DNA of 33,624 nucleotides from a virus (Duplodnaviria; Heunggongvirae; Uroviricota; Caudoviricetes), in the IMG/VR virus record IMGVR_UViG_2531839474_000013, positions 1-33,624 of that record; one strand, 5' to 3'. Position numbers and translations under genes: made by a program. Below, piece after piece: positions 18,441 through 29,265 of this stretch. The notes under the pieces were generated by a model. The model was not told the origin of the DNA. It saw nothing but the letters and a program-made list of their open reading frames with translations, and ran no database searches. Every line of letters starts with the position of its first letter. Within the stretch, counting starts at the first letter, position 1.

Positions 18441-18740
18441 TTACCTCCAGATGCGTTGCTGGAATGTGCGGGACGGACGCGGCGGACGTTCGGAATAAGG
18501 GAGCCTGACGGAGATTATCCAGTGGCGACGGTCAAGGCTGAGGTCTTTCTCAAACTCATACCCACGTCTGCGGTAGTTCTGAATCAGCCATTCGGCCTGT
18601 TCTTCAGTGCAGGGGTCATGCTGGAACCAGTCATATTTGAATGTGTGAGAACGCCGCCCGTGCCTGCTGGCAAAGACGGCTGAATTATCAGAATTGTGTA
18701 ATTTGGTCTTGTGCGCCATCTGTTTTCTCTGCTGGCGCAT
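18441..18740 (-). CDS. hypothetical nin-region protein
   Basis: 99-aa basic protein; stop is 2 nt from the DUF968 start; start codon uncertain (ATG 18740 or 18719). Confidence 0.45.
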   Translation of the reverse strand: MRQQRKQMAHKTKLHNSDNSAVFASRHGRRSHTFKYDWFQHDPCTEEQAEWLIQNYRRRGYEFEKDLSLDRRHWIISVRLPYSERPPRPSRTFQQRIWR

Positions 18741-18804
18741 CTTTGTCAGGTAAAATGGTGTTCAGCCATTTTGGGTGGCATTATTGTTGATACATACAAC
18801 TTGT

Positions 18805-19017
18805 TCAAGTCCGCATAAACTGATACACGATCTCCCTGAGCACTGTTTTCGATACAATTCGCTCATCAGCCCGCAAAGCTCTTACCCTAAGCATGTTCCC
18901 TTTTCGATGCCATACAGCTCTGGCTCCATCCGGAAAACAATCCATTTCAGCTACAACCGACATATCGTCACAACGAATAACTGCGTACTTACAATTCGCG
19001 GCGATCAACTTCTGCAT
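18805..19017 (-). CDS. hypothetical small protein
   Basis: 70 aa; ATG with AGAGG 8-9 nt upstream. Confidence 0.4.
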   Translation of the reverse strand: MQKLIAANCKYAVIRCDDMSVVAEMDCFPDGARAVWHRKGNMLRVRALRADERIVSKTVLREIVYQFMRT

Positions 19018-19114
19018 TGTAAAACCTCTGGTATTGGATAAAACATGGCTGGAATATATCCACTACAAATAACGATTTCACTCCCAAAAAATGCGTATTT
19101 CATGAGAAAAAACA

Positions 19115-19156
19115 ATGACTTTTTCTTTCTGTCATTTGTATACTCTAAAAATAGAG
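19115..19156 (+). promoter_or_regulatory. candidate promoter and palindromic operator of the toxin-antitoxin operon
   Basis: -35-like ATGACT, 18-nt spacer, -10 TATACT (19139..19144), then the palindrome CTCTAAAAATAGAG (19143..19156). Confidence 0.3.
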
Positions 19157-19258
19157 TGTTTTTTGAGCCGCCATTCCTTAGCAAGTCCTCTGTATGGATA
19201 TTGCCTGCCCTATTTAATTGTGTCACACTATGTATTACACAACGGTATGGAACCAAAC

Positions 19259-19630
19259 ATGCGCATTTTCAAAAATGCCTGGTTTGAACGCTTCGCACGA
19301 AAAAATCGGATTTCCGATAAAGCTCTGCGAGAAGTCGTGGAACTAGCTGATAAGGGACTCATATCCGCAGATTTGGGTAGTGGTGTCATTAAGCAGCGAT
19401 TAGCCCGAAGAGGTGGCGGTAAATCAGGCGGTTATAGGACAATAATTTTTTACCGCGTCGCAGAAAAGGCTTTTTTCATCTATGCGTACGCAAAGAATGA
19501 GAGAGAAAATATTACAGCCATCGAGGAAAACGCATTTCGAAAAGCTGCGCATCACGTTCTCAATCTTACTGATGAACAACTGGCGCAATTGATCCTGCAA
19601 GGTCAGTTTACGGAGGTACCCAATGAGTAA
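19259..19630 (+). CDS. type II toxin, RelE/ParE superfamily (HigB-2-like)
   Basis: GSGVIKQRLARRGGGKSGGYRTIIFY...YAKNERENI resembles V. cholerae HigB-2. Start placed at ATG 19259; the track's ORF from 19115 has a long, implausible leader. Toxin gene precedes the antitoxin. Confidence 0.75.
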   Translation: MRIFKNAWFERFARKNRISDKALREVVELADKGLISADLGSGVIKQRLARRGGGKSGGYRTIIFYRVAEKAFFIYAYAKNERENITAIEENAFRKAAHHVLNLTDEQLAQLILQGQFTEVPNE

Positions 19631-19940
19631 AAATTACCGCAGTGATGCACTTGCATCCGTACATGAAATGATGGAGTCACTTCAGGATATTGGCGCAGTT
19701 ACAAAACAAACTATGAGAGAGTTTGATGAACTCTGTCTGCAACCAGCGCCAACAATGTCGCCAGAAAGAATCCGGGCACTTCGCGAGCGCGAGCATCTGT
19801 CTCAACCTGTTTTCGCCAGATATCTTAATGTCAGTAAAAACCTCATTTCAGACTGGGAAAGGGGAATAAAGCGCCCTGGTGGCCCTGCCCTTCGTTTGCT
19901 TTCTGTGGTTGAGAAAAACGGAATTCAGTCAATCTGTTAA
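19623..19940 (+). CDS. HTH-XRE antitoxin (HigA-2-like)
   Basis: 105 aa; C-terminal HTH SQPVFARYLNVSKNLISDWERGIKRP; overlaps the toxin stop by 8 nt. Confidence 0.75.
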   Translation: MSKNYRSDALASVHEMMESLQDIGAVTKQTMREFDELCLQPAPTMSPERIRALREREHLSQPVFARYLNVSKNLISDWERGIKRPGGPALRLLSVVEKNGIQSIC

Positions 19941-19961
19941 TAAAAATTCACCATGAATAGC

Positions 19962-19995
19962 AAAACCCCGGACCATCAATCCGGGGTTTTTGTTT
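19962..19995 (+). terminator. intrinsic terminator after the toxin-antitoxin operon
   Basis: CCCCGGACCATCAATCCGGGG followed by TTTTTGTTTG. Confidence 0.6.
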
Positions 19996-19996
19996 G

Positions 19997-20080
19997 TTAT
20001 CCCCAGCGGCAAATCGAATACACCACCAGCGCCACCGCCATCGCAATTCCTACCGTTGTGAATGCTTCAGGCCAGGTCAT
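19997..20080 (-). CDS. possible 27-aa hydrophobic peptide, translationally coupled to the upstream gene
   Basis: ATG overlaps the stop of the 131-aa gene (ATGA); AGGAGGTGA 5-7 nt upstream; product MTWPEAFTTVGIAMAVALVVYSICRWG, a single TM-like segment. Confidence 0.3.
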   Translation of the reverse strand: MTWPEAFTTVGIAMAVALVVYSICRWG

Positions 20081-20472
20081 CGATTCACCTCCTGCTCAAT
20101 ATTTTTAAGGTCATTTTCCGCATACAGTATTGCTGTCCTGGCTGCTCGTAACCGGGCTTTGGCATTTTTCTCTTCACGTTCAAGTTTTGCCACAGCTTCA
20201 CGAAGAGCATCCCGCTTTGCATAGAGTGATTTAATCTCAGACACTATGTTTTCACCGTTTCTCGCACGGTCGAGAACAAGTTCGAACGGATCTAAAGCCA
20301 ATCCACACCGTTTGCAGGTAATCGTACGATTCACTTCTGAAATTGTTGTACGGATATGCTGACAGCATTTTTGCTCGACACTTTTTTCGTCGGTTATCAC
20401 AACGTTGAGGAGTCCTTCCTCCTCTGATTTTGGCTGTACCAGAGTGATAACATTGTCGACTTCATTTTTCAT
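20077..20472 (-). CDS. hypothetical protein with CxxC...CxxC zinc-ribbon-like motif and coiled-coil C-terminus
   Basis: 131 aa; CCQH...CKRCG; AGGAGG 7 nt upstream; start overlaps the DUF551 stop (ATGA). Confidence 0.5.
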   Translation of the reverse strand: MKNEVDNVITLVQPKSEEEGLLNVVITDEKSVEQKCCQHIRTTISEVNRTITCKRCGLALDPFELVLDRARNGENIVSEIKSLYAKRDALREAVAKLEREEKNAKARLRAARTAILYAENDLKNIEQEVNR

Positions 20473-22204: not shown

Positions 22205-22243
22205 TGAACCGCCCCGGTTTTCCTGGAGAGTGTTTTATCTGTG
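22205..22243. repeat. terminal inverted repeat of the IS (orfB-distal end)
   Basis: TGAACCGCCCCGGTTTTCCTGGAGAGTG... is the reverse-complement match to the other end. Confidence 0.7.
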
Positions 22244-22246
22244 AAC

Positions 22247-23134
22247 TCAGGCTGCCAGATCATCGTTTCTGATGGAAGCATAATAAGCTTTTTCTGCTTC
22301 TGCCGGAGGGATATGACCCAGCCTTCCCAGCAATCGTCGATTGTTATACCAGTCCACCCACGTGAGTGTGGCCAGTTCCACTTCTGCACGGTTTTTCCAG
22401 CTCTTACGGTGTATTACCTCCGCTTTGTAAAGACCATTGATGCTCTCCGCCATCGCGTTGTCATACGAGTCACCTGTACTCCCTGTTGATGCCAGCAGTT
22501 TTGCTTCTTTTAGTCGCTCCGTATAGGCCAGTGATACATACTGAGAACCTTTATCACTGTGATGGACTGTGCCGGACGGCCGACGGGCCCACAACGCCTG
22601 CTCCAGTGCATCCAGCACGAATGTCGTTTCCATAGACGATGAGACTCGCCACCCCACGATACATCCGGCAAACACATCAATGATGAACGCCACATAGACG
22701 AAGCCCTGCCATGTGCTGACGTAAGTAAAATCAGCCACCCACAGCTGGTCAGGACGTTCTGCCACGAACTGACGGTTTACGCGGTCGCCTGCGGAAACGG
22801 CTTTCCGGCTGACGGTAGTACGGACCTTTTTACCCCGGAGAACACCGGCAAGTCCCATAACCGCCATGAGGCGCGCCACTGTACATCTGGCCACCCTGAT
22901 ACCTTCGCGTAACAACTGGCGCCAGACTTTACGCACACCGTACACCTGATGATTTTCATCGTATACGCGCTGTATCTCTCTCTTCAGCCAGTCATCGCGC
23001 TGAGCACGGGCACTGCGTTTATCAGGATGATGTCGCTGTTGCTGACAGTGGTAATACGTTGACGGGGCAATATGCAGTTCACTGCATACCGGTCCGACCC
23101 CGTACTGCTCACGCAGCTTATCCAGCAGCGGCAT
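22247..23134 (-). CDS. IS3-family transposase OrfB (DDE catalytic domain)
   Basis: 295 aa with integrase-core-like motifs (ADFTYV, HSDKGSQY, DNAMAES); in the -1 frame relative to orfA. Confidence 0.9.
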   Translation of the reverse strand: MPLLDKLREQYGVGPVCSELHIAPSTYYHCQQQRHHPDKRSARAQRDDWLKREIQRVYDENHQVYGVRKVWRQLLREGIRVARCTVARLMAVMGLAGVLRGKKVRTTVSRKAVSAGDRVNRQFVAERPDQLWVADFTYVSTWQGFVYVAFIIDVFAGCIVGWRVSSSMETTFVLDALEQALWARRPSGTVHHSDKGSQYVSLAYTERLKEAKLLASTGSTGDSYDNAMAESINGLYKAEVIHRKSWKNRAEVELATLTWVDWYNNRRLLGRLGHIPPAEAEKAYYASIRNDDLAA

Positions 23135-23460
23135 TATTTTTTCCAGAGGCGGTCGAACTCCGCCTTCGCAAAATAAGCGGAAGCCTGGCGAAGGATATCG
23201 TTACTGCGGCGCAGTTCACGATTTTCACGTTCCAGCTCTTTCAGACGCTGACGTTCAGCGGTGGTGAGTCCACCATCACCACTCCCGGTATCCCGCTCAT
23301 GCTGACGAACCCACACACGCAGAGTCTCTGGTGTACAGCCAATCTTTGGGGCAATGGAACAAATTGCCGCCCATTGTGAGTCATATTCGCCCTGACTTTC
23401 CAGAACCATACGAACTGCCCGTTGACGGACCTCGGGGGAAAAACGTGTATTTTTAGTCAT
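23134..23460 (-). CDS. IS3-family transposase OrfA (HTH domain)
   Basis: 108 aa with HTH and leucine-zipper-like C-terminus; ends TGG AAA AAA TAA, where orfB continues in the -1 frame. Confidence 0.9.
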
Positions 23461-23475
23461 CCTGTTTACCTCTTT

Positions 23476-23514
23476 CTCAGGGAGTTTAGTCTCCAGGATT
23501 CCCGGGGCGGTTCA
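23476..23514. repeat. terminal inverted repeat of the IS (orfA-proximal end)
   Basis: Minus strand TGAACCGCCCCGGGAATCCTGGAGACTAAACTCC..., 54 nt upstream of the orfA ATG. Confidence 0.7.
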
Positions 23515-28704: not shown

Positions 28705-29265
28705 TTCATCCTCCTGAGGGTTAGTAATTAAGGAGTTCTCCACGGGTGAGGTGGAGTGCGTGCGCCGGACACGGGTGAGCATCCGGCACTGACAGTTTAC
28801 TGAAAGGATATCTCCCTGAAAAGTCAGGGCATAACGCGAAAGCGCACGGCGAAGTTGTTGGTTCATAGATAGCCTGTCGTTAAATTTTCGTCGACCGTGC
28901 GCTTCCGGTTGTGGCACTCCGCGAAATGGCGCGGCGGTAAGTATGGCGGGGTTATTCCTTCCCCGTTGAGGACACCGGGTTGTCAGGTTGACCATACGCT
29001 TAAGTGACAACCCCGCTGCAACGCCCTCTGTTATCAATTTTCTGGTGACGTTTGGCGGTATCAGTTTTACTCCGTGACTGCTCTGCCGCCCTTTTTAAAG
29101 TGAATTTTGTGATGCGGTGAATGCGGCTAAGCGCACGAGGAACAGTTAAAACCAAAAACAGTGTTATGGGTGGATTCTCTGTATCCGGCGTTAATTGTTA
29201 ACTGGTTAACGTCACCTGGAGGCACCAGGCACTGCATCACAAAATTCATTGTTGAGGACGCGATA

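Follow-up and report, generated by a model that had tools for sequence, protein, structure and literature searches.

Among described toxin-antitoxin (TA) systems, the prototype for the locus considered here is HigB-2/HigA-2 (HigBA2) of Vibrio cholerae (VCA0468/0469; PDB 5JAA, 5J9I, 8A0X), whose toxin belongs to the Pfam family PF06296, as is also stated in PMC11980606, and whose active-site residues K49, R51, R64, Y82 and K84 have been mutated or listed in earlier work (PMC5416850, PMC10098735). The operator bound by its antitoxin, VcHigA2, has been footprinted and crystallised, and consists of the inverted repeat TGTACGC-N5-GCGTACA, which begins downstream of the -35 element and covers the -10 element (PMC11006873). 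For HigBA2 from plasmid pAB120 of Acinetobacter baumannii and ToxP/AntitoxP from plasmid QpH1 of Coxiella burnetii, RNase activity or inhibition of translation has been reported, as has autorepression by the antitoxin with the toxin acting as co-repressor (PMC5906591, PMC10098735). Herein we describe a plus-strand TA pair in a 33,624-nucleotide stretch of caudoviricete DNA (IMG/VR record IMGVR_UViG_2531839474_000013), referred to in its entirety as the window. A first-pass annotation of this DNA had proposed a RelE/ParE-superfamily, HigB-2-like toxin followed by an overlapping helix-turn-helix (HTH) antitoxin, together occupying a cassette at 19115–19995. Our analysis indicates that the pair is very probably an intact, autoregulated type II HigBA-2 module comprising a PF06296 toxin, predicted to act as a ribosome-dependent mRNase, and a HigA-2/YiaG-like HTH antitoxin, which would neutralise the toxin through its N-terminal part and repress the operon at 19221–19239. 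The module is an accessory cassette in a variable slot of a lambda-like, Qin-like Escherichia coli prophage, with the replication genes to one side of it and the Q-like antiterminator to the other.

The toxin open reading frame (ORF) on the plus strand (19259–19630) begins with an ATG at 19259 and ends with a stop codon at 19628–19630, and encodes 123 amino acids. A profile search of both proteins, one of the checks that the first-pass annotation had itself suggested, matched the toxin to PF06296 and the antitoxin to HTH_3. The PF06296 match spans the toxin completely (model positions 1–120 of 120, 159.7 bits against a cut-off of 27, E = 4.2e-47) and is its sole Pfam match at E <= 0.1. Prototype VcHigB-2 is recognised by the same model (34.5 bits) and is also the closest relative of the toxin by sequence in the PDB, as well as the only significant one (E = 2e-4 with a single sequence and 3.7e-5 with a profile). 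All five active-site residues are kept, with K45, R47, R60, Y77 and K79 of the window toxin aligning with K49, R51, R64, Y82 and K84 of VcHigB-2. The columns of K45, R47, R60 and K79 are invariant in the 16 aligned sequences; position 77, the tyrosine that aligns with Y82, is a phenylalanine in most relatives. The glycine- and arginine-rich motif that had been pointed out in the toxin is present as RLARRGGGKSGGYR. The toxin did not match the Pfam models of Rts1 HigBA/HigB-1 (PF05015) or E. coli RelBE (PF05016), and NCBIfam gave no informative match for it. These features support a predicted RelE-like mRNA endonuclease of the HigB-2 family.

The antitoxin gene (19623–19940, plus strand) encodes 105 amino acids followed by a stop codon, and its ORF overlaps that of the toxin by 8 nt (ATGAGTAA). 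Reading the sequence directly, a GGAGG ribosome-binding site lies 6 nt before the antitoxin ATG, within the end of the toxin gene (19612–19616, plus strand); the only ribosome-binding site ahead of the toxin start is a weak GGA(A). The HTH_3 match (E = 8e-8) falls in line with a C-terminal HTH-XRE domain like that of HigA-2, and VcHigA-2 is the best PDB match of the antitoxin by sequence (E = 5e-8 to 9e-8). An AlphaFold2 (AF2) model of the antitoxin had a predicted local distance difference test (pLDDT) score of 85, and its best Foldseek match was the HigA2 chain 5j9i_B, at 1.0 Å over 63 residues with a template-modelling (TM) score of 0.85. Two helices are predicted within the first 40 residues, where HigA-2 has its toxin-neutralising segment, and this part of the protein is the predicted toxin-binding region. 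Chains of the HigBA2 complex are thus the best solved-structure relatives of both proteins, as expected from the original proposal of a HigB-2/HigA-2-type pair. Models of the antitoxin MqsA scored below their cut-offs for this protein (PF15731, 15.4 versus 30 bits; TIGR03830, 31.8 versus 61.8 bits, over the HTH part only). The cassette comprises two genes and not three, since the small ORFs found upstream of the TA genes in different alleles are unrelated to one another. An Rfam search of 18700–20100 at both thresholds used found no hok/sok or other RNA, returning only sub-threshold terminator-like matches.

To place the pair among its relatives we assembled 128 loci, of which 80 came from bacterial contigs representing one genome per species, 45 from viral contigs and three from annotated E. 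coli loci. The toxin-first order is near universal in this set, as 126 of the 128 loci have an antitoxin homologue directly downstream of the toxin and in the same orientation; the remaining two are contig ends. Their hosts include Proteobacteria, Acidobacteria, Chloroflexi, Cyanobacteria and others. In 69 of 78 distant loci the antitoxin is the better conserved of the two proteins, with a median identity of 64% compared with 54% for the toxin. The 40 E. coli-type loci all keep a full-length antitoxin, and in 15 of them (L003 and the L107–L120 alleles) the toxin ORF is broken, being frameshifted or truncated to 40, 84 or 100–102 amino acids. This suggests that the toxin has been lost repeatedly from E. 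coli-type loci with retention of the antitoxin, and broken toxins beside intact antitoxins fit the pattern expected of a harmful toxin and a useful antitoxin. Of 5426 complete E. coli genomes, 217 contain the family, in every case on the chromosome, and 10 contain an allele at least 99% identical to that of the window. PhiR12_3 is the one isolated phage found to carry the family; its copy occupies another region and has a truncated toxin.

Upstream of the toxin gene, the family has a common motif, TATAACAC-N3-GTGTTATA. With at most 5 mismatches allowed in 16 positions, the motif occurs in the 120 nt preceding the toxin gene for 75 of 85 distant relatives, compared with 67 of 1700 shuffled controls, and its left end lies 28–70 nt before the start codon (loci L004–L083 and L121–L128). 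A position weight matrix (PWM) built solely from these 75 distant relatives identified one site in the whole window, TGTCACACTATGTATTACA at 19221–19239 (22.6 bits); the next best site in the window scored 5.4 bits and the maximum of 30 shuffles was 16.6. This predicted operator is a 19-bp imperfect inverted repeat, TGTCACAC-TAT-GTATTACA, whose right end lies 19 nt from the toxin start codon. No other block is common to all three E. coli allele groups, and the repeat shares its 19-bp length and TGT...ACA ends with the VcHigA2 operator. The antitoxin probably recognises this site, a suggestion that we base on conservation of the motif and not on contacts common to the two antitoxins. The operator overlaps the -10 element of a candidate proximal promoter on the plus strand (19201–19229), which would consist of a -35 element TTGCCT (19201–19206), a 17-nt spacer that includes a TG at 19221–19222, and a -10 element CACACT (19224–19229). 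A TTG occurs at the same offset from the operator in approximately 40% of the distant relatives, and the family exhibits two promoter layouts: in one, TTGAAA directly adjoins the repeat, and in the other a TTG precedes it by 20 nt.

Family membership and anatomy are observed directly; for activity, binding and trigger we reason from the V. cholerae, A. baumannii and Coxiella relatives (PMC5416850, PMC5906591, PMC10098735). By analogy with these systems, the toxin would enter the ribosomal A site and cleave mRNA under translation, and the N-terminal part of the antitoxin would bind and neutralise it. A dimer of the antitoxin, alone or with the toxin as co-repressor, would bind 19221–19239, cover the -10 element of the weak promoter and shut the operon off. 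The strong GGAGG before the antitoxin, combined with the weak site before the toxin, would be expected to keep the antitoxin in excess. Were the supply of antitoxin to stop, which could follow loss of the prophage or the shut-off of host transcription by an infecting phage, the labile antitoxin would decay and the toxin would arrest translation. Either prophage addiction or abortive infection may be the selected trait.

Several observations weigh against this interpretation. An AF2 model of the toxin, made with a 50-sequence alignment, had a mean pLDDT of 64.8, with residues 35–61 below 50, and a Foldseek search of this low-confidence model against the PDB gave no match at E <= 0.001, HigB toxins appearing at E values of 0.4–1.4. 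The RelE fold of the toxin is therefore a prediction from its sequence. In the antitoxin, the base-contacting residues R68, E71, N72 and R77 of VcHigA2 are N73, S76, D77 and I82, and are not conserved. The proximal -10 element CACACT is weak and failed a consensus scan. In PADLOC-DB v2 the toxin matches no family and the antitoxin has only generic HTH matches, at E values of at least 3e-5; a defence role is unsupported because PADLOC is without a model that matches the toxin. Lastly, a literature search on TA genes in lambdoid nin regions and on HigBA in E. coli prophage defence found no experiment on the window module.

Other explanations of the pair differ in what they assume of its function. 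The locus might be an inert relic whose toxin has lost either its toxicity or its expression, leaving a function for the HTH protein alone, such as that of an anti-addiction factor or a regulator. The 15 E. coli-type loci that combine a broken toxin with an intact antitoxin, the greater conservation of the antitoxin in most distant loci and the weakness of the proximal promoter are all consistent with such decay. In the window, however, the toxin ORF is full length and retains every catalytic residue, an allele at least 99% identical recurs in 10 complete genomes, and the window contains no further copy of the operator motif at which the antitoxin could act as a regulator; we accordingly regard a relic as quite improbable. 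The idea that the toxin is a ParE-like gyrase poison and not an mRNA endonuclease is scarcely credible. Although RelE and ParE toxins share one fold, and the RefSeq name is merely 'RelE/ParE family', the toxin matches PF06296 and not the ParE family PF05016, its RNase active-site residues are conserved, and the cited characterised members of PF06296 inhibit translation or cleave RNA (PMC5416850, PMC5906591, PMC10098735). It is also unlikely that the module does more than provide passive addiction, whether by abortive-infection defence of the lysogen or by gating the late development of its own prophage. Such gating is possible because the cassette runs head-on against the early operon, with a possibly two-way terminator between the replication genes and the Q-like antiterminator.

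The remaining alternatives concern the DNA between 19115 and the toxin start codon. The first-pass annotation had placed a promoter here, with a palindrome overlapping its -10 element, and on this model the promoter at 19115–19144 would drive the operon and the palindrome CTCTAAAAATAGAG would be the antitoxin operator. Both elements are present as sequence. The upstream promoter-like site on the plus strand, ATGACT and TATACT separated by 18 nt, matches the consensus at 9 of 12 positions, its -35/-10 block is kept between window-type and strain-48-type alleles, and the palindrome (ACTCTA-AAAA-TAGAGT at 19142–19157, with 6-bp arms and its CTCTAAAAATAGAG core at 19143–19156) folds as an 8-bp hairpin. 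A 9/12 match means little alone, since 5 sites of this kind turned up in the 1.4 kb covered by the sigma-70-like scan, where 2.4 ± 1.3 were expected, and the function of this site is uncertain. Strain-48-type alleles lack the palindrome, and the third allele group lacks the entire block. Nor does the palindrome stand above chance, because shuffling the 241-bp intergenic region produced an inverted repeat of the same class 40% of the time; it is unlike the motif found upstream of the 75 distant relatives, which maps 65 bp downstream at 19221–19239, and a start site at the upstream promoter would leave a leader of approximately 108 nt. We therefore rejected the palindrome, which is probably fortuitous, as the operator in favour of 19221–19239, and consider the upstream model as a whole doubtful.

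The same DNA bears on the start of the toxin. A longer frame is open from 19115 to 19630 (171 amino acids), and a 2025 survey (PMC11980606) takes the 171-amino acid RelE of E. coli VREC0535 (SQP90372.1) as an example of PF06296 toxins "with extended, unstructured N-termini", proposing such a disordered extension for 'relE yiaG' modules. Many database records give the 171-amino acid form, and SQP90372.1 clusters with the window protein at the 90% level. Against this, the Pfam match begins at residue 49 of the long form, and RefSeq calls the 123-amino acid form, with WP_001217946.1 starting at 19259. Alleles approximately 80% identical in DNA show in-frame stop codons and three 1-nt indels in 19115–19258; a locus with an identical toxin (L086) permits an extension of only 13 codons; and an upstream stop codon lies within 48 codons in 77 of 83 distant relatives, at a median of 10 codons. 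Between SQP90372.1 and the window, 7 of the 48 extension residues differ compared with none of the 123 toxin residues, and the conserved operator and the promoter candidates would fall inside the supposed extension. We consider the long product very improbable and reject the 171-amino acid ORF as the true toxin, its first 48 codons (19115–19258) being non-coding leader and promoter DNA. Position 19115, given as the left end of the cassette in the first-pass annotation, is the start of this long ORF and of the -35 hexamer and not that of the toxin. The published disordered N-terminal extension of this toxin is most likely an annotation artefact arising from a mis-called start codon. Other 'extended' members of the PMC11980606 set may merit the same start-codon check.

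At its right end the cassette closes as originally drawn. A stem-loop scan and folding identified a strong intrinsic terminator at 19962–19995 (plus strand), which also forms the right edge of the variable slot; its hairpin (19962–19990) has an 11-pair stem with 6 GC pairs followed by a T tract, and folds at -20.5 kcal/mol (z = -3.8), with the same energy on the minus strand, in agreement with the earlier suggestion that the pair has a terminator of its own. With an A-run and a T-run flanking the hairpin, the terminator is possibly active in both directions. In the absence of an overriding antiterminator, the hairpin region (19950–20005) could also halt early-operon transcription before it reaches the Q-like gene.

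Homology to other E. coli prophages stops at approximately 18740 and resumes at 19994–19997, and the end of the cassette at 19995 coincides with the point where homology to cassette-less prophages resumes. The intervening DNA (18741–19993) forms an accessory slot within the early (nin-like) region of the prophage; its flanks are common to thousands of E. coli prophages, but its contents vary. It holds hokD only in strain M9 (L130, 1373–1528), a parD-parE pair that is also on the plus strand in strain C325 (L131, 1009–1571), a higBA2-family TA pair plus hokD in strains 48 and 2014C-3097, and relB-relE-hokD in K-12 Qin (L129, 7120–7873). The DUF968 protein of the window is 80% identical to Qin YdfU, which adjoins the Qin slot. 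The parallel with Qin relBE and hokD, which had been drawn from position, is stronger than was claimed: it is a true positional equivalence, and the slot beside the DUF968/YdfU gene is a recurrent landing site for unrelated TA types (relBE, parDE, higBA2 and hok). Sharing the slot with the TA pair is a 70-amino acid ORF on the minus strand (18805–19017) that matches phrog_1813 (E = 7e-16); it is not annotated by RefSeq in the closest prophage, and is probably a real small phage gene. A 99-amino acid neighbour (18441–18740) was considered as a Rem homologue and rejected on comparison.

The closest prophage, from E. coli strain Z1323CEC0019, is 100% identical to the window over 19000–20080, matches it closely in the surrounding genes and differs by an insertion sequence (IS). 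It adjoins potC and carries tail, head, terminase and lysis genes, a Q-like antiterminator, RusA and the DUF968 gene; on the other side of the TA pair are early genes, ydaS/ydaT-like and dicA-like regulators, ydfABC, the DicF RNA and kil. All of its annotated genes from the tail genes to the cro-like gene are on the minus strand except the TA pair, which bears out the earlier observation that the pair is a lone plus-strand unit set against the early operon. A full-length DicF small RNA lies at 29040–29091 of the window (plus strand, 76.7 bits), adjoining ydfABC-like genes and kil, which marks the immunity region as Qin/Rac-like. The IS3-family element that is present in the window and absent from the Z1323CEC0019 prophage spans 1307 bp on the minus strand (22205–23511), with an ALIL frameshift pseudoknot at 23063–23179, ORFs at 23134–23460 and 22247–23134, and the ends TGAACCGCCCC...GGGGCGGTTCA. 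The gene that it disrupts belongs to the early operon and lies between those for replication and the Q-like antiterminator, so activation of the late genes may fail in the window copy of the prophage.

As a TA module, the pair is nothing new in kind. It is already known, as RefSeq annotates both genes, as a RelE/ParE-family toxin and an HTH protein, its family has been characterised structurally and biochemically, and PMC11980606 uses a toxin with an identical 123-amino acid core as an example. The family-wide operator motif gives a precise site for binding tests, and the DUF968/YdfU slot offers a convenient natural setting in which to study the contribution of TA genes to prophages.

Compared with V. 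cholerae HigB-2/HigA-2, the window pair shares the Pfam family of the toxin, the active-site residues and the toxin-first order. The two also have in common an antitoxin built from an N-terminal neutralising part and a C-terminal HTH, as judged for the window from sequence and model, and a single 19-bp inverted-repeat operator over the promoter (PMC11006873), which for the window is predicted in silico. They differ in that the toxins are approximately 31% identical and the window toxin is 13 residues longer at its C-terminus; the N-terminal regions of the antitoxins cannot be aligned, and both the DNA-contacting residues and the operator sequence are different. Furthermore, the V. cholerae pair is a superintegron cassette and not a prophage gene. 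The A. baumannii and Coxiella pairs are likewise relatives of HigB-2/HigA-2, but they are plasmid-borne and concerned with plasmid stability, and they are distant in sequence. The 'relE yiaG' pair of E. coli VREC0535 (SQP90372.1/SQP90371.1), described bioinformatically in PMC11980606, is effectively the same module, as the 123-amino acid part of its toxin is 100% identical to that of the window; the difference is that PMC11980606 models a 171-amino acid toxin with a disordered extension.

In terms of setting, the counterpart of the window pair is relBE-hokD of the cryptic prophage Qin of K-12, which occupies the same slot in the same type of prophage; in both prophages a Q-like gene lies to one side, and dicA/dicC-like genes, ydfABC and DicF lie to the other. 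Qin RelE is also a ribosome-dependent mRNase, the activity that we predict for the window toxin. Nevertheless, RelE belongs to PF05016, its antitoxin gene comes first, and RelB is not an HTH-XRE protein. The Qin genes run with the early operon, whereas the window pair runs against it and is without hokD.

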